Shown here piece after piece: positions 8,073-59,919 of a DNA stretch of 64,000 bases. Each line of letters opens with the position of its first letter. Within the stretch, counting starts at the first letter, position 1. Under the pieces are notes generated by a model. That model ran no database searches, had not been told where the DNA came from, and saw only the letters and a program-made list of their open reading frames with translations. Source of the DNA: an uncultured Gammaproteobacteria bacterium. Its GTDB lineage: Bacteria > Patescibacteriota > Patescibacteriia > Magasanikbacterales > GWA2-37-8. The position numbers and the translations under genes are program-made. The stretch is taken from the NCBI GenBank assembly GCA_964355175.1, contig CAYHBZ010000002.1, positions 396,537 to 460,536 on the forward strand. Reading direction: 5' to 3'.

Positions 8073-8084
8073 GTTCTTTACAAT
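8073..8084 (+). repeat. 12 bp direct repeat GTTCTTTACAAT, copy 1, at the 5' boundary of high-GC cassette 1
   Basis: Exact 12-mer, also present at 8940-8951 and 10397-10408. Each copy lies 75-170 nt upstream of a high-GC ORF. Confidence 0.55.
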
Positions 8085-8245
8085 AAATAGTGCTGAGCCC
8101 ACATGAGATCAAGAATTTCTTGATTTGATGCGGGTTCAGTGCACACAGCATTGACGTCCTCCGCGATTTTGCGGATTCGTTCAGTGCTGCGTACTGCAGC
8201 CAGGTCACGCGCCCACCTCAGTGGCGTTTCGTTCAGGAGTTTCCG

Positions 8246-8779
8246 ATGACCACCGCAAAGCACCCCGATCCGAACCATCCGGACCCCGGCACCACCGAAG
8301 AGCCCGTCGTCGACAAGGCGAAGGGCGACACGGTGGTGACCACGACGACCACCACGAGCGTTTCGTCGGCCGAGCCCATCAAGGCAAAGCCGGTGGCGAC
8401 CACCGACACCACGGCTGGCAAGACGGCGACCCAAGAGCCCAAGAAGGGTGGCTGGCCGCTCGGGACCATCGCCGGAGCTGTCGTGCTCGGTCTTCTGCTC
8501 CTCGGCGGCGTCTACTGGTTCGGCAGCCACAACAGCAGCACGCCGGTCGTCCCGCCCATCGCGGTCGCCGGTTGCTGTCTTCCCCAGGCCACCGTCGCGA
8601 GCCCCTGCTGCCCGCAACCGCCGGCTCCGCCCCCGCCGCCCGCCCCCGTCGTCAAGAAGAAGACGGTCGGCGAGTGCGTCGCCCAAGCCGTCGCCGGCAT
8701 GGAGGTCGCCCATGAGGACGACCGCCTCGCCGCGATGGACGGCGCCCGCGAAGAATGCGAGGAAGAATACGGCAAGTAG
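8246..8779 (+). CDS. High-GC hypothetical bitopic membrane protein with a Thr-rich N-terminus, one TM helix and a Pro/Cys-rich C-terminus
   Basis: About 68% GC ORF with RBS 'aggag' 8 nt upstream and a GC-rich hairpin downstream. The overlapping minus-strand ORF is judged a GC-shadow ORF. Confidence 0.5.
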   Translation: MTTAKHPDPNHPDPGTTEEPVVDKAKGDTVVTTTTTTSVSSAEPIKAKPVATTDTTAGKTATQEPKKGGWPLGTIAGAVVLGLLLLGGVYWFGSHNSSTPVVPPIAVAGCCLPQATVASPCCPQPPAPPPPPAPVVKKKTVGECVAQAVAGMEVAHEDDRLAAMDGAREECEEEYGK

Positions 8780-8939
8780 CCGTTCCTGTCTCGCGTCGCT
8801 ATGTCGGTTCGGCGGGCCCTCAGCAATGAGGGTCCGCCGGCCGACTGGCTCGAATAGGACCTTTGTAGATTCCACTAGGGAAACTCCAAAGGTCCCCTAG
8901 ATTACATTCTTTTGGAAACAAGAGGATGTTGATAGGAAA

Positions 8940-8951
8940 AGTTCTTTACAA
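8940..8951 (+). repeat. GTTCTTTACAAT, copy 2, at the boundary between cassettes 1 and 2
   Basis: Exact 12-mer. Followed by an 8 bp inverted repeat, ttcccacc...ggtgggaa. Confidence 0.55.
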
Positions 8952-9196
8952 TTAAAACCAACAAAATTTTTTCCCACCTAAAAAGAATTATTATTTATAG
9001 TAATTCACTCTCGGTGGGAAAAAGTGTGGCGGAAATTCCGTTGCATAGCCTCCGACAGAGTCCCAATTGGGGCAAGTGCCCCGCGTGCGGGCTACTCTGT
9101 TACAGCGACCATTTCTGGGAAGCTGACCGAACGGCCCGCACGGCCGGTGTTCCAGTGTCTTGGTTTCGTGGGGTGAAAGTCCCCTGGAGTACAGCG

Positions 9197-10192
9197 ATGA
9201 ACAAGAATTCGAAGTTCCACAACCTCAGCATCTTGCTGACCCTGGCCATGGGGATCATGGTCGCTTCCAATTCCTACGCCGACGTGGCCACGGCTCGCGC
9301 TCGTGCCGAAGCCGCTCGTAGCCAGGCCAATCGGGCTGAGGTGAAAGCGGTCGACGCACAGACTGCGGCCAACGCGGCCAAGACCGGCGCCACCAACGCC
9401 CAGACCGCGGCCGATCAGGCCAAGGTCGAAGCGACCGCGGTGGGCACCAAGGCGGCCACTGACCTCGCTACGGCGATCCGCGCCCTCAACGGTGCGGTCG
9501 GCGGTGCGCGTGCGGCAGCGGTCAACGGTGATCGTCAGCTCGAGCGCAAGTTCAAGGCGGAGGCCGAGCGCCTTCAGACCGAGATCGAAGCGCTCAAGAA
9601 GCGGGCGCAGCACGAGTGTGCGGCGTTCGATGACAAGGGCAGCCAGGCGGCCTGTCTGACCATGCTCGAGAAGATCAACGCCAAGAACGGCGAAGTCACC
9701 ATGCACGGGCAAGACAAGGACACGGAGGTCCAGATCGCCAAGGTGGGACAGCAGTCCAAGGTGGTCCAGGAGATCTTCGACAACGCAAACCAAAACATGG
9801 ACGCCATCAAGGCGATCCAAATGGGTTGCGTCAACCAGGCCTTCGTCGACAAGGACGGCGTCAGCAAGAGCAAGTGGGAATGCCCCAAGGACATGAAGCG
9901 CGGCCCGCAGTTGCGCTACGAGCTCACGAACGTCTCGAAGTACGGCGACCACAGCGTCGTCATCGAGCCGGCCGAGAGCGGTGGCAATTCCAAGTGGGGC
10001 AAAGTGCTCGGCTTCGGCGCCATCGGTGGTGCTGCTGGCGGTGCTCTTGGCTGGGCCTTCTTCCCGAACCATGAAACCATGGAAGATGGCAGCGTCATGC
10101 ACCGGAATTACACCGGTCTCGTCGCTGGCACGGCCATCGGTTTCGTGGTCACGGCGGTGGCCACCCTGGTCATCGAAGAACTGACCGAATAG
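9197..10192 (+). CDS. High-GC secreted/membrane protein with a signal peptide, an Ala-rich helical region and a C-terminal TM anchor
   Basis: Start chosen at MNKNSKFHNLSILLTLAMGIMVASNSYA, a signal-peptide-like sequence. The ORF track begins at 9014. Gly-rich TM helix at the C-terminus. Confidence 0.5.
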   Translation: MNKNSKFHNLSILLTLAMGIMVASNSYADVATARARAEAARSQANRAEVKAVDAQTAANAAKTGATNAQTAADQAKVEATAVGTKAATDLATAIRALNGAVGGARAAAVNGDRQLERKFKAEAERLQTEIEALKKRAQHECAAFDDKGSQAACLTMLEKINAKNGEVTMHGQDKDTEVQIAKVGQQSKVVQEIFDNANQNMDAIKAIQMGCVNQAFVDKDGVSKSKWECPKDMKRGPQLRYELTNVSKYGDHSVVIEPAESGGNSKWGKVLGFGAIGGAAGGALGWAFFPNHETMEDGSVMHRNYTGLVAGTAIGFVVTAVATLVIEELTE

Positions 10193-10396
10193 GTCAACGG
10201 GTGAGGAGATCACCCCAAAGGATTGCAAGTGTGTTGGTTCACTTGCGCCAAATCTCGGTGTAGCTTATCTTGTCCCGCATTCGCGGTACGAGAGAAAGTT
10301 CACTAAACCGGTGGCGTGAACGATGGCTCAAATAGAGCTGTCGGTCACGCCCCAACAACTATCTTCTGTTTTTCAAACAGGGGATTGAGTTGGTAA

Positions 10397-10408
10397 GTTC
10401 TTTACAAT
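10397..10408 (+). repeat. GTTCTTTACAAT, copy 3, at the boundary between cassettes 2 and 3
   Basis: Exact 12-mer. Followed by a 15 bp-stem hairpin, ttctcatacaggaca...tgtcctgtgtgagaa. Confidence 0.55.
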
Positions 10409-10641
10409 TTATTTCGTTAGATTTTCTCATACAGGACATAGGATATTTTTTGTATCTTGTGTCCTGTGTGAGAAGCCCCCAGTGGGGGTTGCCTGGGTGA
10501 AAACCCGACTAGGTCGGGGCGTTCGCTCCGGCAATTCCTCACTAGGGTGGTAAAAACGCCATCCGGACGGGTCAACTTCGACCTTTTCGGTAAAGTAGCA
10601 GTGTCTTTCTTTGTCCGCCCTTTAGTGGGCCGGAGGTTCTG

Positions 10642-12063
10642 ATGCGTAACCGGTTTCAATTGGTCGCGACTCTCGCGATGGCGGCTGCAGCCTGTGCAGC
10701 GTGTGGTGTCATCGAACATCCGGCCGATGCGGTCGTGATCGTGGTCGAAAAAGACGCCAGCAGCCAGGATGTCCAGCAGGACAACGGTCCGGCGCAGCAG
10801 CCCGAGATCGCGCAGACGGCCGACATCGCGCAGGACAACGGTCCGGCGACGAAGCCTGAGTGCGCGGTCGACAGCGACTGCGACGACAAGAACCCCTGCA
10901 CGACGGACGTCTGCGGCAGCAACGCCTGCGTCCACGTGGCCAACTCGGTCTCGTGCGACGACGGCAACGCCTGCACCAGCAACGACAAGTGCGGCTCCGA
11001 GAAGTGCTCGGGTGACCAGAAGGTCTGCGACGACAACAACCCCTGCACCGACGACGGCTGCGTCAGCGACGGCACCTGCCTGCACGGCGTCAACATCGTC
11101 AACTGCGACGACAGCGACGCCTGCACGGAAAAGGACCAGTGCGCCAACGGTAAGTGCGTCGGCCAGGTGAAGTCGTGCGACGACAAGGACAACTGCACGA
11201 CGGAATCGTGTGACAAGCTCAACGGGTGCTCGTCCACTCCGGTCGTCTGCCAGGACGCCGGGGATCCGTGCACGACGGAATCGTGCGACAAGGCAACGGG
11301 CAAGTGCTCGTCCACCACCGACTGCGACGACAAGGACGTCACCACGTTGGATGCCTGTGAACCGCTGCTCGAGACCGTGGGAATGGAGAAATGCCTCCAC
11401 ATCAAGATGCAGACCAAGTGCACCAAGAATGCGGATTGCGACGAGGACGGCGATCCGTGTTCGTTCGAGTTCTGTTCCCAGATCGGCTACTGCGCCAGCA
11501 AGTGGAAGTTGTGCGATGACGGAGACTACTGCACCCAGGACGAATGCGTCCCTCAGGCCGACTACGCCTGGTGCAAGAGCACTCAATACTCATGCGACGA
11601 CTACAACGCCTGCACGCTGGACTCCTGCACCAACGGCTACTGCCAACACAAGGGCAACGCCGCCATGTGCGACGACAAGGACTCCACCACCGCCGACTCG
11701 TGCAACCCTTCCCAGGGCTGCGTCAACACGCCGATTCCTCAACCCGGCGTGCCGAGCTCGACTCCTCCCTCGAATCCCTCGACCTGTGCGGCCTGGGGAG
11801 CGTGGATTTACTTGCCCACGGGCAACTGGCGCGGCGGCTATGACCTGACCGGTTCGTCTTCGCAAGAAACGGACCTGACAATCAGCGTCGACCAGTGGTA
11901 CGGCTTCAGCAACGCTCATTCTGTGTGGGCGTGGCTCAAGCCGTGGGGCAGTGCGGTACCGGCAAGCGTCAAGTGCACTGATCGGTGTGGTGTGGTCTTC
12001 CCCGCGAAGATCAGTGCCATGGCGGGTGGCTTCATCGCCATCTGCAGCACCGACCAGAAGTAG
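10642..12063 (+). CDS. High-GC putative lipoprotein with about 10 tandem Cys-rich repeats (C-D-D-x-N-x-C-T-x-D-x-C), resembling Myxococcales-type cysteine-rich repeats
   Basis: Signal peptide ending AAACAAC (lipobox-like). Repeated units 'CDDKNPCTTDVC' and 'CDDNNPCTDDGC'. RBS 'ggagg'. Internal DNA tandem repeats mirror the protein repeats. Confidence 0.6.
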   Translation: MRNRFQLVATLAMAAAACAACGVIEHPADAVVIVVEKDASSQDVQQDNGPAQQPEIAQTADIAQDNGPATKPECAVDSDCDDKNPCTTDVCGSNACVHVANSVSCDDGNACTSNDKCGSEKCSGDQKVCDDNNPCTDDGCVSDGTCLHGVNIVNCDDSDACTEKDQCANGKCVGQVKSCDDKDNCTTESCDKLNGCSSTPVVCQDAGDPCTTESCDKATGKCSSTTDCDDKDVTTLDACEPLLETVGMEKCLHIKMQTKCTKNADCDEDGDPCSFEFCSQIGYCASKWKLCDDGDYCTQDECVPQADYAWCKSTQYSCDDYNACTLDSCTNGYCQHKGNAAMCDDKDSTTADSCNPSQGCVNTPIPQPGVPSSTPPSNPSTCAAWGAWIYLPTGNWRGGYDLTGSSSQETDLTISVDQWYGFSNAHSVWAWLKPWGSAVPASVKCTDRCGVVFPAKISAMAGGFIAICSTDQK

Positions 12064-12330
12064 GCGGGGCTCAGGGGGTCTAACGGAAAAAGTTTTTGCT
12101 CTTTGGTAAAAGCAAACGGAAGGAGGTGTTCCTTTCGATAGGCCATTTCGGCCACCCATGCCAGAGGCGAGCGATCGCTAAAGGCTGGTCAACTAGGGGT
12201 GGTGTTGCTTCACCGCACACCACCCCGACCATCTCTAGCTCACAATATCTGTTGTGATCTGAAGATGGAAATAGCAATATGTCCATGACAAAAATACCAC
12301 CCTTCTCTCGGGCGGTTTTTTGTTTTTTAA

Positions 12331-18125: not shown

Positions 18126-18154
18126 TTGACAGGCGCTGGTTTTTTTGATTTAAT
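18126..18154 (+). promoter_or_regulatory. sigma70-like promoter (TTGACA-17-TTTAAT) for high-GC gene 4
   Basis: TTGACA at 18126-18131. Homologous in sequence to the promoter/5'UTR at 19331. Confidence 0.4.
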
Positions 18155-18306
18155 AATAAGTCGTTTGTTCTTTATTTGGCAGGATAATTTTGGATTAAAA
18201 TTTTTAATTCAGAGTTATCGTGCCAACTTTCTCAATGCGTGTCGGCGAAATGCGTCGATATGTAAAGAGAGGTGCGAGAGCCTACATGGTAGGCAGGAGA
18301 GCAGGA

Positions 18307-19122
18307 ATGGCAGACAGCAGCCACAACGTTACTCAGGTCGGCATCACCGTCGGGCCGCCCAACGCCGATCTCGGCAGTGTGGTGGTTCGTCAGGAGGCGG
18401 CCAGGGCGGATCTCAATGAGCGGCGTACGCATCTCAGCTTGGTTGTCAAGCCCTCGGTCGATGATCTGGTCGCGCGGCTGAATGTCGAGCGGCAGGAAGT
18501 CGACCGCATCGGCGCGCTGGTCGATGCGGTAGAGCGCGAACAGGCGAAGAGCGTCAAGCACTTCGAATCGACGCTCGGCGGGCAGGCGCGGCTCTGGAAG
18601 AAGGGTTTCGACGCCCATGAGCGCTCGATCTTCTGGGTCAAGCTCCTCGGCGTCGTCGGCCTGGTCCTGGTCGGTATCGTCCTGGTCCTGAACCTGTCGT
18701 CCTCCTCGGACATCTCCACGGCCAAGTCGGAAGCCATCTCGGCCAAGACCACCGTGGCGGAGTTCAAGAAGGCCACCCAAGGCGAGGTCGTCAAGATCAA
18801 GAAGAGGCTCGATGCCAACAAGCTCGACATGGATCAGCTCAAGGATCAGATCAAGGTCGTCGGGCTCAAGGCTGACAAGAGCGTCGTCACTCGCATGGGC
18901 GAAGAGCTCAAAGAAGCCAACATCGAGCAGGACGGTCGGATCCAGGACATCGCCACCGCGATCATGGGCAAGGCCGACATAGCCGATCTCAAGAGCGTGA
19001 GGAGCGCAGTCGCGCAGGTTCGCCGGGCCAACGGCAAGGTGAACACGAAGATGACCAGGCTCGAAGCTCAGGTCCTGGAGCTCAAGGCCCAACTCCAGGC
19101 CCAACAGCCCAAGACCATGTAG
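18307..19122 (+). CDS. High-GC bitopic membrane protein with one TM helix and a coiled-coil C-terminal domain
   Basis: ATGGCAGAC start with RBS 'aggagag'. The ORF track starts at 18220. TM helix 'VKLLGVVGLVLVGIVLVLNL'. Confidence 0.5.
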   Translation: MADSSHNVTQVGITVGPPNADLGSVVVRQEAARADLNERRTHLSLVVKPSVDDLVARLNVERQEVDRIGALVDAVEREQAKSVKHFESTLGGQARLWKKGFDAHERSIFWVKLLGVVGLVLVGIVLVLNLSSSSDISTAKSEAISAKTTVAEFKKATQGEVVKIKKRLDANKLDMDQLKDQIKVVGLKADKSVVTRMGEELKEANIEQDGRIQDIATAIMGKADIADLKSVRSAVAQVRRANGKVNTKMTRLEAQVLELKAQLQAQQPKTM

Positions 19123-19193
19123 TCCGTTCCCGATCTGTTCGGGCACTTGTAGTTTAGCCTTGATTTCTGAAGGCAAAAGCTCGGTGAGGACGC

Positions 19194-19300
19194 AAAATCC
19201 CCCCAAGGGTGTGTCGTTTACTCGACACTACCTGCTTAGTTCGCAAAAAATTGTTTGCTGAGCAGAATAAAAAATCCGCTATTATGGTGGATTTTTTAAT
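19194..19300 (+). repeat. Conserved ~110 nt structured 3' element, family M1, copy a
   Basis: Aligns along its length with 20125-20238. The internal hairpin changes from gtgtcg/cgacac to gtgccgac/gtcggcac with pairing preserved. Ends in a hairpin plus U-tract. Confidence 0.55.
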
Positions 19301-19330
19301 CTAAAATATGCTGTTTTTAGGTCAGTAGTA

Positions 19331-19359
19331 TTGACAAAGTAGGATTTTTATGTTTTAAT
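19331..19359 (+). promoter_or_regulatory. sigma70-like promoter (TTGACA-17-TTTAAT) for high-GC gene 5
   Basis: TTGACA at 19331-19336. The 5'UTR is homologous to that of gene 4 (shared ttgttcttt...attaaaattttt). Confidence 0.4.
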
Positions 19360-19504
19360 AGTTCATTAGATTGTTCTTTTTAATCAATTCGCGCGACAAT
19401 TATAAATTAAAATTTTTCAATTTATAATCGTCGTGCGAATTTCAGTTTATCAATGACGGCCAGTCGGAGGTTCCGATTGGTTCAGCTCTTTCTGCGAGGT
19501 GAGC

Positions 19505-20074
19505 ATGGTTGATTTCAATCCCCCGGATCCAGTGGATCCAGAGAAGAAAAAGAAGCCTTCGTCGGCTGTGGAGACAGACCACAATTGGGAAGCCTGGGCC
19601 AACGATAATTCGGTCGATGACGGCAGTCATCCTCTGCCTGGTGAAGCCGAATACGTCGGACGGTCCGACCTTCCCATGACACGGGCACAGAAAGAGCGCA
19701 TCGCCGCGATCGTAGTCGGTACGGCCTTCCTGGTGTTGGTTTTCTTTGTCATCAATTTCGCTATCGGCAACAAGCTCAAGCATTCTGAAGCGGCCTCGTC
19801 CAACGAGGCTGGCAAGCAGAGCGCTCAGGCAAGTGCCGAAGTAGAATTGAAGGCAGAAGAAGCCGCCTCAGAGCAGGATCATACGGTCTCGCTGCCGGAT
19901 CACGCTTCGCAGGAAGATGATCTGGACGATGCTCGCGCGACCATCAAGGTCGTCGGTTTGGAGAAACGGCGCGTTCGAGATCCAGAGATGGAGCGGATCG
20001 CCGCAACCATCAAGATCGTGCCACTGCGTGTCAGTCCTGTCGCGGTACCGCTTCCAGCGGCCGCTACTCAGTAG
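19505..20074 (+). CDS. High-GC bitopic membrane protein with one TM helix
   Basis: ATG at 19505, alternatively the GTG at 19499. TM helix 'IAAIVVGTAFLVLVFFVINFAI'. No family recognised. Confidence 0.5.
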   Translation: MVDFNPPDPVDPEKKKKPSSAVETDHNWEAWANDNSVDDGSHPLPGEAEYVGRSDLPMTRAQKERIAAIVVGTAFLVLVFFVINFAIGNKLKHSEAASSNEAGKQSAQASAEVELKAEEAASEQDHTVSLPDHASQEDDLDDARATIKVVGLEKRRVRDPEMERIAATIKIVPLRVSPVAVPLPAAATQ

Positions 20075-34000: not shown

Positions 34001-34354
34001 CTACCAGGCGCCCATGGGCTGAGACGTAGGCTTGGCGACTTCCAGTTCCTGGGCCGTGGCCAGACGCGCTCCGGCACAGGTGCCCAGCACCCACTGGATC
34101 ACGAGCAGGTCACCGACCTTGGTCTCCTTGGGGACGAACAACGGGAAGCCGCTGCGGTCCTCGTCGGCTCCGCGCTTGTGTTCGTTCTCTGCGAAGTAGC
34201 GATGGCCGCTCTTGTCGCTACGTCCGAGCACGTAGAAGATCGGAGTCTCCGGATGCTGGTCGGCGTTGTTGCTGTCGCGACGGATGAGTTTGCCTTGGGG
34301 TACAAAGATACCGACACCGGTTTCGAGCCGGAAGACACCGTGAAAGATAAGCAT
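34001..34354 (-). CDS. High-GC hypothetical protein (117 aa)
   Basis: High-GC ORF with RBS 'aaggac'. Has its own TTGACT-17-TATATA promoter at 34401-34429 (minus strand). Confidence 0.45.
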   Translation of the reverse strand: MLIFHGVFRLETGVGIFVPQGKLIRRDSNNADQHPETPIFYVLGRSDKSGHRYFAENEHKRGADEDRSGFPLFVPKETKVGDLLVIQWVLGTCAGARLATAQELEVAKPTSQPMGAW

Positions 34355-44682: not shown

Positions 44683-45738
44683 ATGAAAAAAAGTAAAAAA
44701 ACAGCAGTGTTCTTTCTAGTAGCCCTTTCGTTCGCGCTTGGGCTTGTCGGTCCACTGGCCGCATTGGCTGGTCCAACCAAGATTGAACTTTTGTCGGCCG
44801 ATAATTTTGCCATCCTTGCCGGTTCCACCATTACCAACATTGGATCGAGCATCGTTGGCGGAGATCTTGGCTTGAGCCCGGGTACCGCGGTCACCGGGTT
44901 TCCACCGGGAATTGTGAACGGAACCCAGCATGTGGCTAATGCCGTTGCCGCTCAGGCGCAGTTAGATGTCACTACCGCTTATACGACAGCGCTTGGATTT
45001 GCGTCTATTTCCACTATACCAACCGAACTTGGCGGAACGACTAAAACCCCTGGTGTTTATGATTCCGCGGCTGGGACTTTTGGAATCACTGGTACACTAA
45101 CGCTCGACGGTGAGGGTGATGCGAACGCGGTGTTTATTTTTAAAACCGCTACCACTTTTATCATGGCCGCAGGGAGTAAGGTGGTTCTTGTGAACGGCGC
45201 GCAAGCGTGTAACATCGTTTGGCAAGTAGGTAGTTCAGCGACGCTTGGAACAAATTCTACGTTACAAGGCAGTATTCTAGCGTTTACTTCCGCCACGCTT
45301 AATACTGGCGCACATGTCCAAGGGCGAGTATTAGCTCGCAATGGCGCCGTTACTTTAGATTCTAGTACTGTTACCAAAGCTACTTGTGCTGTGCCTGTTG
45401 TGGAACCAATTGTGGTATCAGCGCCTCAGCCCACATCGACTCCTAATTTTTCGACATCCACTCCTACATCCGTGATAATACCATCGTTTTCAACTTCAAC
45501 ATCAATGCCAGCGCCCAGCACAACACCATTGGTATTCTCAGCCACTGTGACAGCTTCGCCTACACTGAATGTTGCTCCGCTTGTGTCTACATTTATTCCT
45601 GATTTTCCCAATACCGGTCTTTCTCCACAAGAGACAAGTATGTGGTGGGGTAGTCGATTGTTTGTCGCTAGCGCGCTTTTGATTTTGACTTTATTGTTGG
45701 TAATCTTAAAAAAACGTTCATCATCTTTGGGTGTTTAA
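44683..45738 (+). CDS. Secreted DUF3494 (ice-binding-like) domain protein with a C-terminal sortase sorting signal (FPNTG, hydrophobic helix, KKRSS)
   Basis: Signal peptide followed by 'FAILAGSTITNIGSSIVGGDLGLSPG', typical of DUF3494. C-terminal 'FPNTG' plus TM helix and basic tail. Confidence 0.65.
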   Translation: MKKSKKTAVFFLVALSFALGLVGPLAALAGPTKIELLSADNFAILAGSTITNIGSSIVGGDLGLSPGTAVTGFPPGIVNGTQHVANAVAAQAQLDVTTAYTTALGFASISTIPTELGGTTKTPGVYDSAAGTFGITGTLTLDGEGDANAVFIFKTATTFIMAAGSKVVLVNGAQACNIVWQVGSSATLGTNSTLQGSILAFTSATLNTGAHVQGRVLARNGAVTLDSSTVTKATCAVPVVEPIVVSAPQPTSTPNFSTSTPTSVIIPSFSTSTSMPAPSTTPLVFSATVTASPTLNVAPLVSTFIPDFPNTGLSPQETSMWWGSRLFVASALLILTLLLVILKKRSSSLGV

Positions 45739-46342
45739 TATGTCTAGTCGTGTAAAGATGAGTCTCGTTGCCTTAGTTGTTTTTTTCTTCATTCTCGGCC
45801 TGTCTGTCTCTGAACTCTATACGAAGGTACCTTTGTCCGCAAATACGCTTGCAACCTCGACGCAGTTGATAGTCCCATCAGAGCAAACGCTTCTAGGCTT
45901 GCCGATACATCTCACGATCCCACGGATCCATGTCGATGCCTCCCTTGAATATGTTGGCCTCACAGCGACCGGGGCAGTGGATGTGCCAACAGTGCCAGCG
46001 AATCCAGCCTGGTACTCGCTGGGGCCGCGTCCGGGGCAAACTGGCAGTGCGGTGATTGTCGGGCATTTCGGCTGGAAAAAAGGGATGCCAGCGGTTTTTG
46101 ATGATTTGTCTACTCTGCGTAAGGGCGATAAGTTGTATGTCAAAAATGAACACGGAGCGACTACTACTTTTATAGTACGCGAGTTGCGAAGCTATAGCGC
46201 GCATGACAGTGCTGTGGAGGTATTTAGCTCTAGTGATGGGAAAGCGCATCTGAATTTGATCACCTGTGAAGGAACTTGGAATAAAATTGAGGAGAGTTAT
46301 TCAAAGCGACTGGTGGTATTTGCTGATTTAGAAGATAGATAA
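45731..46342 (+). CDS. Sortase (transpeptidase)
   Basis: N-terminal TM helix, catalytic His region and 'LNLITCEG' (TLxTC motif). Confidence 0.75.
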   Translation: MFNMSSRVKMSLVALVVFFFILGLSVSELYTKVPLSANTLATSTQLIVPSEQTLLGLPIHLTIPRIHVDASLEYVGLTATGAVDVPTVPANPAWYSLGPRPGQTGSAVIVGHFGWKKGMPAVFDDLSTLRKGDKLYVKNEHGATTTFIVRELRSYSAHDSAVEVFSSSDGKAHLNLITCEGTWNKIEESYSKRLVVFADLEDR

Positions 46343-55312: not shown

Positions 55313-56116
55313 ATGATTCCATATTTCCAAGCCAATGCTTTTGCGATTGGGCCAATCACTATCCAAGTGTGGGGGTTGATGGTGTCACTTGGAATGTTGG
55401 TAGGATTGGTGATTTCTTATAAATATGCCCGTCGATATTTTTTGTCCGAACAGGTCATTTTGGATTTAGCGCTCTGGAGTATTATTGGCGGATTTATCAT
55501 GGCTCGAATTTTCCATATAATTTTTTACGCGCCGGATTATTATCTTTTACACCCGTCGGAAGTAATTTATTTTTGGCAGGGTGGAGCTTCGTCTATTGGT
55601 GGATTTGTCGGAGCCGCTTTGGCGATTTATATTTTTGCCAAAATAAAAAACTTTTCTTTTGTTGAGTTGCTGCCATATTTTGATGTGATGGCGGTGGGAT
55701 TGTGGATTGGATGGGCGATAGGGCGTATCGGCTGTTTCCTTATTCATGATCATCCAGGCACATTATCGCATTCGTTGTTGGCAGTGAGGTTTCCGGATGG
55801 CGCTCGATTTGATTTGGGTTTGTTTGATTCCATTTTAGCTTTTTTCATATTTTTTATTTCTGTTTTGTCTTTTAAAAAATTGGTTAAAATCCGTTATGGC
55901 CTGATATCCAAACTATCTTTTATGATATATGCTTTCGCGCGTTTTTGGTTAGATTTTCTGCGCGCATCGGATTTGAGTCAGTCTGATATGCGTTATGCCC
56001 ATCTCACGCCGGCGCAATGGGGGATGGCTGTGATTTTTATAGGATTGACTTTTTCTCTCTTTTTTGATAAAATCAAGTCCGATGTCATCCCGAATGAAAT
56101 GAGGGATCTTAAATAA
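55313..56116 (+). CDS. lgt: Prolipoprotein diacylglyceryl transferase
   Basis: Polytopic protein with 'GRIGCF' signature. Confidence 0.8.
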   Translation: MIPYFQANAFAIGPITIQVWGLMVSLGMLVGLVISYKYARRYFLSEQVILDLALWSIIGGFIMARIFHIIFYAPDYYLLHPSEVIYFWQGGASSIGGFVGAALAIYIFAKIKNFSFVELLPYFDVMAVGLWIGWAIGRIGCFLIHDHPGTLSHSLLAVRFPDGARFDLGLFDSILAFFIFFISVLSFKKLVKIRYGLISKLSFMIYAFARFWLDFLRASDLSQSDMRYAHLTPAQWGMAVIFIGLTFSLFFDKIKSDVIPNEMRDLK

Positions 56117-56121
56117 TCACT

Positions 56122-56206
56122 GGAGAGGTCGCATAGTGGCCGAGTGCGCCGCCTTGGAAAGGCGGTATACCGCAAGGTATCGAGGGTTCAAATCCCTCTC
56201 TCTCCG
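56122..56206 (+). tRNA. tRNA-Ser(GGA)
   Basis: Hand fold with anticodon loop TTGGAAA, long variable arm and T-arm GAGGG-TTCAAAT-CCCTC. No encoded CCA. Hairpin terminators at 56236-56270 and 56300-56330. Confidence 0.7.
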
Positions 56207-56405
56207 CTGGGTCACGCTTATATGAGCAAAGGGTTCATATTCCAAAAACATCTCGACTAAGTCGGGATGTTTTTTTACCAGATAAAAAAATAATTCTTCA
56301 TAAAAACACACCGTCGGGTGTGTTTTTATATTGACAAAAATGTATTTTTAGTATAGGCTCTAGCCTGATCGTTCTCGCGGATTTCTCGCGCTACAGGAGG
56401 ACATC

Positions 56406-56774
56406 ATGGCAGATTCTCTGCCGTTCCAAGAAGATCTGCGTAAGCCATTCCACATCTCAGTCTGCGACCGGATCGCTCTCTGCCTCACGGCAATGAGCAT
56501 CTCCGGTGGAAGGGAGATCCCGCTCGGCATCCAGGAGGTGACCAGAGACCTGGATCTCTTGGACAAGACCAAGGTCCCGGCCAAGGAACTGCCCAGTGTG
56601 ACAAAGGCCCTCTACGGCCTGCGGGTGATGTACGGCCCTCTCATGCCGACGGTTTCTCAGCGCCTGACCCAATCGATCGACCTCTTGGTCGTGTATCAAG
56701 AGGAGCTGGCCGAGGATGGCAAGCTGGATCGCGACCTCGTGTGGTTGCCGCCTGTCGTCGACCCGGTAGCCTAG
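56406..56774 (+). CDS. High-GC hypothetical protein (122 aa)
   Basis: RBS 'aggagga' 6 nt upstream. Long imperfect hairpin plus U-tract downstream (56890-56960). Confidence 0.45.
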   Translation: MADSLPFQEDLRKPFHISVCDRIALCLTAMSISGGREIPLGIQEVTRDLDLLDKTKVPAKELPSVTKALYGLRVMYGPLMPTVSQRLTQSIDLLVVYQEELAEDGKLDRDLVWLPPVVDPVA

Positions 56775-57041
56775 CTGGTCTGTAGATTTTCACCCGGTCT
56801 TCGTCTATGTCCGGGTTGAGAGGTGTTCATACACCACTCCGTCCCGACTTAGTCGAGACGTGAATCACCGCAAGGTAGTGACGAGAACATCAGACATTCA
56901 GACTGTTCGCGCTCACTTAAGATTATAACTTGATTATAGTTTTAAGTGACGAACAGTCTTTTTGTTTTTTCTAAAGGATATTTTATAGATACGGATGGCA
57001 ATACTTTTGGTTTGCATCAGCCGGATGAAAAGGCGGCATAA

Positions 57042-57070
57042 TTGACTTTTTTGAATTTAATCGCTAAAAT
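57042..57070 (+). promoter_or_regulatory. sigma70 promoter TTGACT-17-TAAAAT
   Basis: Counted directly. About 35 nt upstream of the ATG at 57106. Confidence 0.5.
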
Positions 57071-57105
57071 GGTGTTCAGCCATTTTGGCTTTTTGGAGTT
57101 TCGCC

Positions 57106-57327
57106 ATGAGTGTAAAATATCGTCCGGGAACCGGCAGGGAGCCGCGCATCTTCCATGAGAGTATGGGCTTGCCCAGCCGGACGGTCGTTCAGATCGACTG
57201 GTGGACCTGTCCGAACCTGATCGTGAAGGATGAGCAGTTCGGAAATCGCGAACTCTGTGACTTTCAGAACCCGTCTTGGGAACACAAGTGCCAGGGTTGC
57301 GGTGCCGATCGTCCCGATAAGTCCTAG
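57106..57327 (+). CDS. High-GC small protein with a C-terminal RanBP2-like zinc-finger motif (W-x-C...C-x3-N-x6-C-x2-C)
   Basis: Start at MSVKYRP; the ORF track begins at 57085. 'DWWTCPN...CDFQNPSWEHKCQGCGADRP'. Confidence 0.5.
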   Translation: MSVKYRPGTGREPRIFHESMGLPSRTVVQIDWWTCPNLIVKDEQFGNRELCDFQNPSWEHKCQGCGADRPDKS

Positions 57328-57335
57328 GAGGACTC

Positions 57336-57456
57336 ATGCGTATCCGCGCACCCCCGCCTTAAAAAAGGCACAGGGAAGTAGCGGAATAAAAACCGCCGCC
57401 AACCTGTTTTGTTTCCAAATACAATTGGAGATGGGATAGGCTGGCGGTTTTTTGTT
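57336..57456 (+). other. Module M2, copy a: mini-ORF MRIRAPPP-stop followed by a terminator hairpin with a conserved loop
   Basis: RBS 'aggagga' overlaps the upstream TAG. The 9-codon ORF spans 57336-57362. Hairpin aaccgccgcc...ggctggcgg plus U-tract at 57388-57456. Confidence 0.5.
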
Positions 57457-57511
57457 TGACTTCCAGAGAGGGATTTGATAGTTTTGATGGGCGCAAATTT
57501 CGCGCCAACCA

Positions 57512-57925
57512 GTGAGGAACACAATGACTTGTGGTCAACGTCGCAAACTGCGTCTTGATATGATCGTGGTCAAGGGCTGGAACGGTCGTCGCCTCTCCAA
57601 GGGGTGTCGGAAGTACATACGCCGTCACCTGCCTCTGGAATGGCAGGCGATCGAGGATCGTGCTCAACAGGAGCGTGAGCTGGTGCGGCAGATCGAGCTG
57701 CACAAGGCGGCTGCTCGCAACAAGCAGACGGCTACGCGGCCGAGCTTCTCCGCGCCGTCGTTCGCTACGGCGAAGCCTGCACCGGTGCCGGTCAAGCCTC
57801 CGCGGGATCCATGGTGGACCTGCAAGGCCGAAACCAAGGGAGGTTATTTCTCCGGCGCCTGCAACGAGCTGAACTACAGTAATACCTCCTGCACCTACTG
57901 TGGTGCGGCTCGCCCGGCAGCGTGA
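57512..57925 (+). CDS. High-GC protein with a basic N-terminus and a C-terminal RanBP2-like zinc-finger motif (paralogous C-terminus to 57106)
   Basis: 'PWWTCKAETKGGYFSGACNELNYSNTSCTYCGAARP'. Confidence 0.5.
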   Translation: MRNTMTCGQRRKLRLDMIVVKGWNGRRLSKGCRKYIRRHLPLEWQAIEDRAQQERELVRQIELHKAAARNKQTATRPSFSAPSFATAKPAPVPVKPPRDPWWTCKAETKGGYFSGACNELNYSNTSCTYCGAARPAA

Positions 57926-57931
57926 GGAATC

Positions 57932-58054
57932 ATGCACTACTCCACCGGACCGCCTTGAAATATAGGTGGGCAGGGCGGAGGAAGATTACATCGACCACCA
58001 AACTGCTTTGTATGAAAATTTTTTATATAGAGCAGAGTGGTCGATGTTTTTTTA
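57932..58054 (+). other. Module M2, copy b: mini-ORF MHYSTGPP-stop followed by a terminator hairpin with a conserved loop
   Basis: RBS 'gaggaa'. ORF spans 57932-57958. 11 bp perfect stem acatcgaccac/gtggtcgatgt plus U7. Confidence 0.5.
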
Positions 58055-58064
58055 TTTGAAATAC

Positions 58065-58093
58065 TTGACAAAAGCTCTATTTTTGTCTATAAT
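58065..58093 (+). promoter_or_regulatory. Consensus sigma70 promoter TTGACA-17-TATAAT
   Basis: Perfect hexamers with a 17 nt spacer. Confidence 0.55.
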
Positions 58094-58197
58094 CATTAGT
58101 TAATTAATGGTCATCATATGATGCACGCCCAAAGAGGTTGGTCGTGTTTCATACCGTGATCCGTTAAGGAACATGGGCAACTCGCGTAGGGGGAAAT

Positions 58198-58746
58198 ATG
58201 TTGGAAATCATTTTGGAACCGAAGCTCAAGAACAAGTTCCTGACCGCTCGGGTCAAGGCGCATTGCGGGGTCATGACATGGTCGTTTTGCACCGCTGAAG
58301 GCGGTGTGGCGATCATCGAAGCGTTCGTCCGCGAACGCGTCTGGGGCTGGCAGGAAACTCGTCCGCTCTGCCGCCAGATGGAAGCGACTTTCCCCAAGGA
58401 TGCCAGCAAGTTGGCCGCCTGGCTCAACATGTTCGAGTCCTCCTCGTGCGATGTGGCCGTTCAGCCCATCCATCTCGTGGATCAAGCCGGCGCTTCCCTC
58501 GCTATCAGTGGCAACCAGCTGCATGATGGTGTGGTCGCTACGATCGGTACGGCCGTCTGCATGCTGGATCACTACCTCGTTCGCGGGGTGTTGCGCAACG
58601 GCGACTGCATCTCCGCGACGCAGCAGATGCTCCAGGCTGGCATGACCGACGTCATTTCGGAAAAGGCGTTTCGTGCTTTGACCGGTGGCATTCCGCTGTC
58701 CGGTTTCAACGAGTACGACTACCGTCGGATGGTCGGTCAACTCTAG
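58198..58746 (+). CDS. High-GC hypothetical protein (182 aa, Cys-containing, soluble)
   Basis: RBS 'aggggg'. The overlapping minus-strand ORF is judged a shadow. Confidence 0.5.
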   Translation: MLEIILEPKLKNKFLTARVKAHCGVMTWSFCTAEGGVAIIEAFVRERVWGWQETRPLCRQMEATFPKDASKLAAWLNMFESSSCDVAVQPIHLVDQAGASLAISGNQLHDGVVATIGTAVCMLDHYLVRGVLRNGDCISATQQMLQAGMTDVISEKAFRALTGGIPLSGFNEYDYRRMVGQL

Positions 58747-58763
58747 TCAAAGAGGAGGAGAAC

Positions 58764-58892
58764 ATGGTTTCTATCCGTGCTCCGCCCCGATAAAGGGCGA
58801 TAGGAAGGAGTACGGAGACAAAGAAAGCCGCGCACCAACCTATTTTGTTTCTAAATTTTTGGAAATAGAATAGGGTGCGTGGCTTTTGTTTT
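58764..58892 (+). other. Module M2, copy c: mini-ORF MVSIRAPPR-stop followed by a terminator hairpin with a conserved loop
   Basis: RBS 'gaggaggag'. ORF spans 58764-58793. Stem gccgcgcacc/ggtgcgtggc plus U-tract. Confidence 0.5.
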
Positions 58893-58947
58893 CCCCTATA
58901 CAAAACCTCATTTTTTGTGTAGGATAAGGGTTGATAACTTAATCAAT

Positions 58948-59919
58948 ATGTACGAAATAGTCTTATTTTATAAATACATTCACATAGCCGATCCGGAAGC
59001 CTTGATGAAGGCTCAGCGACAGGTGTGTACCGACCTTGGTCTCAAAGGCCGTCTTATTATTGCTACCGAGGGAGTCAATGGTACTTTTGAAGGTACTAAA
59101 GAAAATATTGCCAAATATATTGCCATCCTCAAAAAAGATGAGCGTTTTAATAATATTCATTTTAAATTAAGTTCCGGTACGGGGGGTGCTTTTCCTAGAT
59201 TATCTATAAAAGTGCGCAATGAAATTGTGAGCTCTCATCTTGGTGAAAAAGATATTGATCCTCGCACTACGACTGGTAAATATCTACAAGCCGAAGAATT
59301 ACACGAATGGATCCATGGTGGCAAAGAATTTTATATCGTGGATATGCGTAATGATTATGAATTTGAAGTTGGCCGCTTTGCCGGTTCGATTTTGCCACCG
59401 CTGAAAAATTTTCGTGATTTATCTGGAATTTTGCCGTCTCTAAAAAGTCTCAAAGATAAAACTGTGCTTACGGTTTGTACTGGTGGTGTGCGCTGTGAAA
59501 AGGCGTCAGGGTTTTTGGTAGACAATGGTTTTGCCGATGTGTATCAGCTGTACGGTGGTATTGTGACTTATATGGAAAAATATCCAAATGAAGATTTTAA
59601 AGGCGCACTGTATGTTTTTGATGGTCGTGTCACCATGGGTTTTAATTTGACTGATCCAAAACACGAAGTGGTAGGGAAGTGTTGGTTGTGCAAAAATCCC
59701 GCTGAAAAATATTTGGATTGTGCCTTTTTACACTGTCGCGGCAAGCGTCACTTTCTCTGCTGTCAGAGTTGTGAAAAAACCAAACAAGGATATTGTGGCA
59801 CAATTTGTAAATTGAAAGAAAAATTAGGACCAGTATCGTTGACCATTGAACGTTTTTACTATAAAATAAGTAGTGTAATCAAAAAATACCATGTCCAAAA
59901 AAACCACTCTACAAATTAA
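58948..59919 (+). CDS. trhO: Rhodanese-domain tRNA U34 hydroxylase TrhO (YceA/UPF0176 family) with a Cys-rich C-terminal extension
   Basis: 'MYEIVLFYKYIHIADPE...GRLIIATEGVNGT' start and rhodanese active-site Cys 'CTGGVRCEKA'. Confidence 0.7.
   Translation: MYEIVLFYKYIHIADPEALMKAQRQVCTDLGLKGRLIIATEGVNGTFEGTKENIAKYIAILKKDERFNNIHFKLSSGTGGAFPRLSIKVRNEIVSSHLGEKDIDPRTTTGKYLQAEELHEWIHGGKEFYIVDMRNDYEFEVGRFAGSILPPLKNFRDLSGILPSLKSLKDKTVLTVCTGGVRCEKASGFLVDNGFADVYQLYGGIVTYMEKYPNEDFKGALYVFDGRVTMGFNLTDPKHEVVGKCWLCKNPAEKYLDCAFLHCRGKRHFLCCQSCEKTKQGYCGTICKLKEKLGPVSLTIERFYYKISSVIKKYHVQKNHSTN

Follow-up and report, generated by a model that had tools for sequence, protein, structure and literature searches.

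We analyzed a 64-kb stretch of DNA (the window, or "W" when it is listed beside other loci) and the interval within it that runs from a tRNA-Ser(GGA) gene to trhO. The nearest relatives of its TrhO protein are from metagenome-assembled genomes of Candidatus Magasanikbacteria, which belong to the candidate phyla radiation (CPR), or Patescibacteria. An earlier note on this DNA had pointed to four high-GC open reading frames (ORFs) about 200 nucleotides (nt) downstream of the tRNA gene and had suggested that they are a genomic island that integrated at the 3' end of the tRNA. The four ORFs, which we call O1 to O4, are indeed present. tRNA genes were called with ARAGORN and Rfam, and protein families were assigned with Pfam, PHROGs, and PADLOC. 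The corresponding loci from relatives are labelled L008, L009, L010, L088, L090, L091, and L092. From left to right, the interval contains the following features (each mini-ORF peptide is followed by a stop codon; P1 and P2 are the two hairpins of each 3' module).

56122–56207, + strand: tRNA-Ser(GGA), a host gene and the left edge of the variable interval (ARAGORN; Rfam tRNA, 54 bits).
56244–56274 and 56300–56329, + strand: two short terminator hairpins, seen as inverted repeats.
56331–56405, + strand: promoter and 5' untranslated region (UTR) of O1, with TTGACA at 56331, a 17-nt spacer, TAGGCT, a small GC hairpin, and a Shine-Dalgarno (SD) sequence.
56406–56774, + strand: O1, an ORFan of 122 amino acids that starts 199 nt past the tRNA.
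56775–56967, + strand: 3' UTR of O1 with a long-hairpin terminator (hairpin at 56894–56967, 38 bits); 80% identical to L092.
56974–57042, + strand: in-frame remnant (the last 22 codons) of a VOC/glyoxalase gene, identified by alignment to relatives (82–87% identity).
57042–57105, + strand: promoter of O2 (TTGACT, 17 nt, TAAAAT at 57042–57070, with 10 of 12 consensus positions), 5' hairpin, and SD; 92% identical to L092.
57106–57327, + strand: O2, 73 amino acids with a C-terminal RanBP2-like zinc ribbon; 50% amino acid identity to L092.
57328–57458, + strand: 3' module M2, with an SD, the mini-ORF MRIRAPPP (57336–57362), P1 (57343–57385), and P2 with its U-tract (57384–57458).
57456–57523, + strand: promoter of O3 (TTGACT at 57456–57461, TAGTTT at 57479–57484) and a 5' UTR hairpin.
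57524–57925, + strand: O3, 133 amino acids from an SD-preceded ATG, or 137 amino acids if translation starts at the GTG at 57512.
57926–58054, + strand: 3' module M3, with an SD, the mini-ORF MHYSTGPP (57932–57958), P1 (57940–57980), and P2 with its U-tract (57983–58054).
58065–58197, + strand: promoter of O4 (a perfect TTGACA, 17 nt, TATAAT at 58065–58093, with 12 of 12 consensus positions) and a 5' UTR of about 100 nt.
58198–58746, + strand: O4, 182 amino acids, from a tiny family; linked to trhO in W, L008, L092, and L010.
58747–58892, + strand: 3' module M4, with an SD, the mini-ORF MVSIRAPPR (58764–58793), P1 (58774–58816), and P2 with its U-tract (58820–58892).
58893–59919, + strand: trhO (identified with Pfam; ATG at 58948), with a weak promoter-like region upstream; a host gene and the right edge of the interval.

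The earlier note had given each of the four genes its own promoter or ribosome-binding site, and we found a promoter, a 5' hairpin, and an SD for every one of them. It had also described a conserved terminator module after each gene. This holds for O2, O3, and O4, whose modules score 73–92 bits with a covariance model (at 57384–57458, 57983–58054, and 58820–58892), and not for O1, which ends in a different long hairpin. For O3, the note's ORF begins at 57512 (a GTG), and the SD-preceded ATG at 57524 is the likelier start.

The composition of O1–O4 sets them apart from their neighbors. Their GC content is 0.56–0.61 and the GC content of their third codon positions (GC3) is 0.69–0.77, versus 0.38–0.44 and 0.33–0.43 for lgt, trhO, sufC, sufB, and gatA, which flank the interval. 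Within the interval, GC content is 0.21–0.38 in the promoters, 0.46–0.55 in the 5' UTRs, 0.56–0.62 in the ORFs, 0.52–0.59 just 3' of each stop codon (0.53–0.59 for mini-ORF and P1), and 0.32–0.43 in the P2 terminator hairpins; host intergenic DNA is at 0.35. These switches take place within about 30 nt at promoters and terminators. For example, in the O1 leader, the 5' UTR has a GC content of 0.55 versus 0.24 for the promoter. In the frames that we called for O1–O4, GC content is higher at the first and third codon positions than at the second, and this pattern is seen in forward-strand frames only. In comparisons to relatives, the ratio of nonsynonymous to synonymous substitution rates (dN/dS) is 0.12–0.16 for O4, 0.26–0.40 for O3, 0.29 for O2, and 0.54–0.64 for O1. 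Because of the codon-position pattern and these ratios, we consider O1–O4 to be real coding genes. The idea that the ORFs are structured RNA was rejected, as the coding regions of O1 and O4 fold unremarkably (z-scores of -1.1 and -1.7). The stretch also has antisense ORFs of 192–208 amino acids, which are chance products of GC-rich DNA.

The proteins themselves are confined to this lineage as far as they have matches. When we ran the homology searches that the earlier note had proposed, O1, O3, and O4 matched the same lineage only: among 5.8 billion sequences, O1 and O3 have a single relative each and O4 has five close ones, and an exhaustive profile search with O4 returned 6 clusters (at 50% identity) among 1.84 billion proteins. 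O2 has a weak match to the RanBP2-like zinc ribbon of Pfam (PF00641, E = 0.0023, below the cutoff). A C-terminal ribbon (WWTC...C..CGA.RP) is common to O2 and O3, and in O3 it follows a basic coiled-coil N-terminal part. O1 is predicted by AlphaFold to be a four-helix bundle (with a pLDDT confidence score of 82).

We then consider whether the high GC content is fading or maintained. Synonymous third-position changes were polarized on a three-taxon tree (the window, L008, and L092). In O4, 23 of 40 AT sites had changed to GC and 22 of 103 GC sites had changed to AT, which gives an equilibrium GC3 of 0.73 (95% confidence interval, 0.63–0.82); the current value is 0.72. In the host genes trhO, sufC, sufB, and sufD, the counts were 208 of 711 and 148 of 335, for an equilibrium GC3 of 0.40 (0.36–0.44) and a current GC3 of 0.26–0.35 per gene (0.32 pooled). 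Both per-site rates differ between O4 and the host genes (p = 3e-4 and 3e-5). An imported gene that was ameliorating at the host's rates is predicted to show about 45 GC-to-AT and 12 AT-to-GC changes in O4, and we observed 22 and 23; the drift toward host composition that a recent import would show is not seen in O4. Note that parsimony over-counts changes from common to rare states. Because this bias works against our result, the result is conservative. Furthermore, O4 homologues from five lineages have a GC3 of 0.66–0.75, despite amino acid identities as low as 36% and saturated synonymous divergence (dS). Since O4 has an equilibrium GC3 of 0.73 versus 0.40 for adjacent host genes, and since GC3 is high across lineages, we conclude that the high GC content is maintained and is not decaying.

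These substitution patterns indicate that a directional force holds the GC content of O4 in place. The force could be selection on the transcript or on codons, or it could be GC-biased repair in a recombination hotspot. The raised GC content runs from the predicted transcript start to the terminator, with the untranslated parts included, which favors a cause at the level of the transcript or of repair over one that lies in codon choice alone. To produce so large a shift, a modest scaled coefficient of about 1.4 would be enough.

The interval is occupied in relatives as well, and its content differs from one to the next. Relatives whose TrhO is 77–87% identical have homologous or analogous GC-rich cassettes in the same place. 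L092 (TrhO 87% identical) has the tRNA-Ser gene, a diverged O1 (33% amino acid identity), an intact VOC gene, a diverged O2 (50%), O4 (86%), and trhO, and it lacks O3. L008 has O3 (66–69%), O4 (86%), and trhO. L009 (TrhO 81% identical) has lgt, tRNA-Ser, a VOC gene, a distant O3 (30%, E = 3e-9), an unrelated GC-rich ORF of 162 amino acids, and trhO; the unrelated ORF occupies the slot of O4 and is followed by the same type of 3' module. L010 (TrhO 77% identical) has different genes upstream, and still has O4 (36%) and trhO. In L090, a promoter and leader of the O3 type and a terminator of the P2 family surround an unrelated acidic ORF of 80 amino acids. Modules also change partners: O2 of L092 carries the module type that follows O3 in the window (M3). 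As for the tRNA, it follows lgt in L009 and L092, as it does in the window, and in L010 other genes stand in place of both lgt and the tRNA. Because O4 stays beside trhO in L010 nonetheless, the stable anchor of the interval is, as judged from gene order, trhO and not the tRNA.

What is conserved among these loci is mostly the regulatory DNA. Between the window and L092, the 3' flank of O1, the promoters and 5' UTRs of O2 and O4, and modules M3 and M4 are 79–92% identical (91% for M4), versus 85% for O4, 81% for trhO, 66% for the flank between the tRNA and O1, 62% for the O2 ORF, and 57% for the O1 ORF. Similarly, dS between the window and L092 is 1.2 for O1 and 1.7 for O2, versus a local background of 0.65–0.86. 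The promoter and leader elements of O1 are recognizable in L091 (where O1 is 67% identical) and in L092, and the hairpin at 56300–56329 precedes the O1 promoter in L091 too, behind a different upstream gene. The O3 promoter type is kept in L009 as well as in L090. A 25-pair hairpin in the 5' UTR of O4 (58100–58197) is kept in L008, L010, L088, and L092; it persists even at an O4 protein identity of only about 36%, with limited covariation (2 pairs).

The VOC/glyoxalase gene records one exchange. It is intact in L009 and L092, and its 5' part is replaced in the window by the O1 cassette. Because the last 22 codons remain, we conclude that the O1 cassette displaced most of the VOC gene, and because this remnant is still 82–87% identical to the intact genes, the displacement was fairly recent. 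The simplest reading of these comparisons is that cassettes are added, deleted, and swapped through recombination between the repeated, conserved promoters and terminators.

The 3' modules of O2, O3, and O4 share an unusual layout. An SD overlaps or adjoins the stop codon of the main ORF and is followed by an ATG, a mini-ORF of 8–9 codons, P1, and P2. Codons for Arg-Ala-Pro-Pro make up the 5' arm of P1, and the loop of P1 holds the stop codon of the mini-ORF. P2 has a stem of 27–30 base pairs and then a U-tract of 5–7 T, as expected for an intrinsic terminator. The modules have folding z-scores of -4.8 to -9.2. Across 12 copies of P2, 14 of its 29 pairs show compensatory changes, and its apex is conserved in sequence. 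By this comparative evidence, P2 is a genuine conserved RNA structure. Searches of Rfam (with gathering thresholds for the whole window and with permissive E-values for 56000–59100) returned only tRNAs and sub-threshold look-alikes with long hairpins.

The mini-ORFs of the relatives encode similar peptides: MRYSTGPP and MVSIRAPPQ in L008, MKISTGPPNSGG and MFIRGPPW in L009, and MKHPTGPP and, from a GTG start, VSIRAPPQ in L092. Among 1,830 SD-led mini-ORFs of 5–20 codons in 1.45 Mb of Patescibacteria DNA, just 11 have a RAPP-like motif, and all 11 are in this locus. The codons for IRAPP are AUC CGC GCA CCC CCG in M2 and AUC CGU GCU CCG CCC in M4 (four synonymous and zero nonsynonymous differences). 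Because IRAPP differs between M2 and M4 synonymously only, we argue that there is selection on the peptide. In copies of M3, the codons for threonine and proline vary synonymously as well.

RAPP and RGPP are the most robust arrest cores that have been described, and they are resistant to elongation factor P (PMC12992588). In the arrest peptide ApdP, the core reads ...KCI-RAPP, and in the stalled complex the ordered part extends N-terminally from RAP by only about three residues (PMC10951233). Because IRAPP is identical to the core of ApdP and few upstream residues are ordered, stalling at the mini-ORFs seems plausible. Like the known arrest peptides of this kind (ApdA, ApdP, and ApcA; SecM uses RAGP), the peptides from M2 and M4 (I-R-A-P-P) and MFIRGPPW from L009 (I-R-G-P-P) have their core near the C-terminus, and as in SecM/secA-type switches, the predicted stall site overlies an mRNA hairpin (P1). 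Unlike the known arrest peptides, these have just 8–9 residues, without a signal or membrane segment that could sense force; they are at the 3' end of a gene, directly before a terminator, and no gene with an SD hidden by the hairpin lies downstream of them; one module type has TGPP in place of RxPP; and stalling is, in this case, a prediction. The predicted P-site of the stalled ribosome is about 29–31 nt from the last sense codon of the main ORF in M2 and M3 and about 41 nt in M4. A distance of 29–31 nt is similar to the P-site-to-P-site spacing of two collided ribosomes.

Two other features of the modules deserve mention. Purines, and G in particular, are abundant in the 3' arms of P1, which hold SD-like tracts (GGAAGGAG and GGAGGAAG) and runs of G; once a ribosome opens P1, other structures could form there, with G-quadruplexes as one potential form; when we read the sequence, we found no start codon after the SD-like purine tract of the P1 3' arm. 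Also, read-through that would fuse the mini-ORF to the main ORF was rejected, as the frames are inconsistent between copies.

Our preferred interpretation, which we think is probably correct as a whole, is that the DNA from tRNA-Ser(GGA) to trhO forms a hypervariable accessory locus that is resident in the genome and consists of self-contained cassettes whose GC content is held in place and whose 3' ends carry mini-ORFs with arrest motifs. This part of a Candidatus Magasanikbacteria genome would consist of four monocistronic cassettes. In each, an AT-rich promoter of the sigma-70 type would be followed by a hairpin at the 5' end of the transcript, an SD, an ORF that is GC-rich and specific to the lineage, and an intrinsic terminator with a long hairpin. 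Relatives would share this regulatory chassis, and the ORFs inside it would diverge quickly or be replaced; whole cassettes would come and go as the repeated promoters and terminators recombine with each other. The GC-rich composition would be at the equilibrium set by a directional force that acts in place and would not be the residue of a recent import. In this genome's clade, a duplicated 3' module ends three cassettes, with mini-ORFs that are predicted to encode IRAPP, IRGPP, or TGPP. By analogy to the RAPP/RGPP mechanism, a ribosome probably stalls at the mini-ORF, atop P1 and about 35–40 nt upstream of a terminator that would be constitutive. The stall would most likely act on the fate of the finished mRNA or on ribosomes that are terminating on the main ORF, rather than on read-through of the terminator.

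Some of the same observations could be explained by a GC-rich mobile reservoir that has escaped sampling, for instance a plasmid or a phage that belongs to these bacteria or to their host; it would repeatedly overwrite cassettes via their conserved flanks and keep them GC-rich with no local force. We consider this unlikely. Replacement of alleles is evident, in that O1 and O2 have diverged much further than the DNA that flanks them and have raised dS. The O1 of the window is also closer to the copy in L091, which is in another context (dS 0.42), than to that of the closely related L092 (dS 1.21), and L009 and L090 have unrelated ORFs in the same slot. However, O1, O3, and O4 have no relatives in 50,697 phage genomes (tblastn against phage GenBank), O1 and O4 have none in IMG/VR, and the P2 motif is absent from IMG/VR. 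(A scan for P2 in one metagenome found a single locus, L090.) All members of the O4 family with readable genomic context are on AT-rich CPR contigs. Finally, dS for O4 (0.50–0.62) tracks the 0.65–0.86 of its host neighbors, which fits vertical descent.

If the locus is resident, as we propose, the 3' modules might still have another role, as leader-peptide attenuators of transcription of the next gene (O3, O4, or trhO): stalling at proline codons would flip the terminator into an antiterminator. In one variant, M4 could couple the expression of trhO, which encodes a tRNA U34 hydroxylase, to the decoding of proline codons. As in the attenuators of trp, his, and pheA or in ermC/cat, there is an SD-led short ORF, a hairpin that overlaps its 3' codons, a strong intrinsic terminator, and then a gene, and M4, which directly precedes trhO, is highly conserved. 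We nevertheless doubt that the modules are attenuators. When the modelled footprint of the stalled ribosome is masked, only P1 melts, and P2 is intact in 7 of 7 modules. The complementarity of the 3' arm of P1 to the 5' base of P2 is no better than for shuffled sequences in 4 of 5 modules. On these results, from constrained folding and duplex energies, the antiterminator model was rejected. In the classical systems, an alternative antiterminator pairing is present, whereas none is detectable here, and each downstream gene has its own conserved promoter past the terminator. In L010, L088, and L090, P1 and P2 persist in modules that have no mini-ORF, and because of this we conclude that the module works as a terminator without the mini-ORF, which is a clade-specific addition.

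The P2 hairpins could instead be sites of recombination at the DNA level, in a cassette system that is integron-like or that resembles hairpin transposons. The array does look like one of integron cassettes, with serial units of an ORF plus a conserved imperfect hairpin and with cargo that is gained, lost, and swapped between relatives. This explanation seems improbable to us, though, because we found no domain of an integron integrase or HUH transposase among the window ORFs that we scanned, because each cassette brings its own promoter, and because the junctions are at regions of homology in promoters and terminators and not at a fixed core site. P2 also has many G-U pairs, and its sense strand scores 30–40 bits above the antisense strand, which points to a strand-specific RNA structure that ends in a U-tract and so to a terminator.

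The remaining alternative of substance is the one raised by the earlier note, a classical genomic island, in which a site-specific recombinase would recently have inserted foreign GC-rich DNA at the 3' end of tRNA-Ser. The part of that claim that describes the DNA stands. The segment looks compositionally foreign (its GC3 and codon usage are atypical), it begins close to the tRNA, and its gene content is accessory and variable among relatives, all of which are typical of tRNA-associated islands. The part about integration does not stand, and we give it very little credence. The note had reported neither an integrase nor a direct repeat of the tRNA 3' end, and we agree on both: no Pfam domain of an integrase or transposase was found among the window ORFs scanned, including 10 kb on either side of O4, and within the whole window, the 22-nt tRNA end (with up to 3 mismatches) occurs in the tRNA alone. 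Unlike in a typical island, AT-rich, host-like promoters and terminators lie between the ORFs and are common to relatives, and the composition of O4 is at equilibrium instead of ameliorating. When the lgt-to-trhO interval is compared across relatives, a block that is present or absent as a whole is not seen; instead, the content differs cassette by cassette, and orthologues of O3 and O4 are in the same place, inherited at the locus across species-level divergence. In L010, O4 is linked to trhO without the tRNA. Searches of 1.84 to 5.8 billion proteins returned no homologues from beyond the lineage. The earlier note had said that the same genes with host-like composition in relatives would speak against an island; the genes are indeed present in relatives, but their composition remains unlike the host's.

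Lastly, we give essentially no weight to an artefact, either a chimeric assembly or GC-rich noncoding RNA taken for ORFs: GC-rich DNA in an AT-rich genome does yield long chance ORFs (such as the antisense ones here) and Logan contigs do break inside the tRNA, but the exact O4 and Lgt proteins recur in several assemblies, two assemblies in ENA have the order lgt, tRNA, O1–O4, trhO, suf operon on contigs of 954 kb and 464 kb (which also answers the concern about misassembly in the earlier note), and the sharp switches in GC content, the GC3 pattern on the forward strand alone, the low dN/dS of O4, and the unremarkable folding of the ORFs are all as described above.

Two observations concern the borders of the cassettes. 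The Logan short-read contigs L002, L003, L005, and L007 start or end within tRNA-Ser (at about 56169–56194 in the window), and contig L004 begins inside the terminator hairpin of O1; these breaks could stem from a repeat related to the tRNA or from cassette borders that vary between strains. Also, the spacer of the O3 promoter contains (at 57465–57478) a perfect 14-nt inverted copy of the T-arm and acceptor of tRNA-Ser (56188–56201), with 0.02 such matches expected. We set this fragment aside as chance or a relic, as the copy in L009 does not track L009's own tRNA.

O1–O4 are not the only GC-rich genes in the window. The distribution of GC3 is bimodal: host genes are at 0.20–0.49, and ten of roughly sixty genes are at 0.62–0.87. 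The six besides O1–O4 are as follows, and none of them has a tRNA gene within a few kb.

8246–8779: GC-rich gene.
9014–10192: GC-rich gene.
10642–12063: GC-rich gene.
18220–19122: GC-rich gene.
19499–20074: GC-rich gene.
34001–34354, - strand: GC-rich gene.

All ten have inverted codon preferences, with 90–93% AAG (versus 84% AAA in host genes), 83–92% ATC (versus 63% ATT), and 80–89% TTC (versus 85% TTT). All ten are lineage-specific, and those with recognizable features are surface or repeat proteins. We rejected the idea that GC-richness reflects the codon bias of highly expressed genes: HU is typically an abundant protein, and the HU gene has a GC3 of 0.46, which is outside the GC-rich class. 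Two classes of GC3 that lie side by side, with the GC-rich class at its own equilibrium, are reminiscent of the bimodal GC3 that is attributed to GC-biased gene conversion in grass genomes and of the hypothesis of such conversion in bacteria. The differences are that this is a bacterial genome of about 1 Mb, that the GC-rich class consists of small, lineage-specific, fast-evolving genes, that the shift (from 0.35 to 0.75) is very large for a bacterium, and that a link to recombination is, in our case, something that we infer.

Within the GC-rich patch at 8078–12160 (GC content 0.57–0.62), the three ORFs are on the + strand, with a GC3 of 0.79–0.87, AT-rich promoters, and long leaders. One encodes a protein of 473 amino acids with five stretches that match the CTDC cysteine-rich repeat of Dictyostelium (PF00526, E = 5e-25), and the other two translations have apparent hydrophobic, membrane-type segments. 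An exact 14-nt repeat, AGTTCTTTACAATT, is present at 8940–8953 and 10396–10409, upstream of two of the GC-rich genes (about 0.02 expected), and may be a shared regulatory site. The three GC-rich orphan ORFs at 18126–20074 and 34001–34354 (- strand) have a GC3 of 0.62–0.81 and consensus-like promoters and lie amid AT-rich housekeeping genes; the one at 34001–34354 also has a 5' hairpin and a terminator. In distant Patescibacteria, ORFs or stretches of moderately raised GC content (0.50–0.61) with AT-rich surroundings are found in L089 (4499–5101 and its neighbors), L013 (about 3700–4222), L043 (about 3400–4072), and L029 (about 18400–18865), with long-hairpin terminators after those in L013, L043, and L029; L089 has a remote homologue of O4 within a run of small unannotated genes. 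GC-rich genes of this kind may be widespread in the Patescibacteria group. Elsewhere in the window, at 44683–46342, a protein with an ice-binding-like domain (PF11999, E = 6e-60) is encoded directly upstream of a sortase gene, and this arrangement suggests a sortase-anchored surface protein.

Several points weigh against our interpretation of a resident locus with arrest-motif mini-ORFs. The promoters, transcript ends, and expression of the cassettes are all predicted. The equilibrium test is for one gene (O4, with 45 polarized changes) and three taxa, and exchange with other GC-rich alleles of the population by recombination could look like maintenance in place. As for the mini-ORFs, those of the M3 type encode TGPP and not RxPP, so they lack the arrest core, and L010, L088, and L090 have orthologous modules with no mini-ORF at all. 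The RAPP arrest peptides of the cited studies are parts of proteins that are far longer than 8–9 residues (PMC12992588, PMC10951233), and stalling on a nascent chain of 7 residues is putative. The proteins give few hints either: searches of O1–O4 against Pfam, PHROGs, and PADLOC gave no match besides the sub-threshold zinc ribbon in O2, the model of O1 has no significant fold match in the PDB, and the AlphaFold model of O4 is unusable (pLDDT 34).

What a stalled ribosome would do at the end of a gene is a best guess that we hold with low confidence: a ribosome parked there might influence termination or recycling on the main ORF, or might protect or mark the finished mRNA. With similarly low confidence, the combination of a 5' hairpin, a GC-rich body, and a very long 3' hairpin would fit transcripts that are resistant to RNases. 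More broadly, we tentatively suggest, as a possibility that we would not yet bet on, that these ultra-small bacteria have a second, GC-rich dialect for fast-evolving accessory genes, held at an equilibrium of its own along the entire transcript, a conserved AT-rich chassis that makes these genes easy to swap, and, in one clade, a minimal (8–9 codon) RAPP/RGPP arrest ORF at the 3' end that parks a ribosome before the terminator.

If the mini-ORFs do stall ribosomes, then they would be the shortest natural RAPP arrest units and the first at the end of a regulated unit rather than at its beginning. This would be a new use of arrest peptides, in which they control the fate of the mRNA or of the ribosome at the end of a gene and not the expression of a downstream gene. 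RAPP mini-ORFs at 3' ends are also a simple construct for studying the minimal requirements for arrest. Atypical GC content beside a tRNA is routinely taken as a sign of horizontal transfer, and this rule fails here, as the genes are passed on at their locus and their composition is stationary. For the same reasons, predictors of genomic islands would mislabel a whole class of genes in such genomes. Whether the GC-rich dialect is due to selection at the level of the transcript, to biased repair at hotspots of recombination, or to some other process matters for understanding how CPR bacteria produce and express their quickly evolving genes, which may take part in interactions with their hosts.

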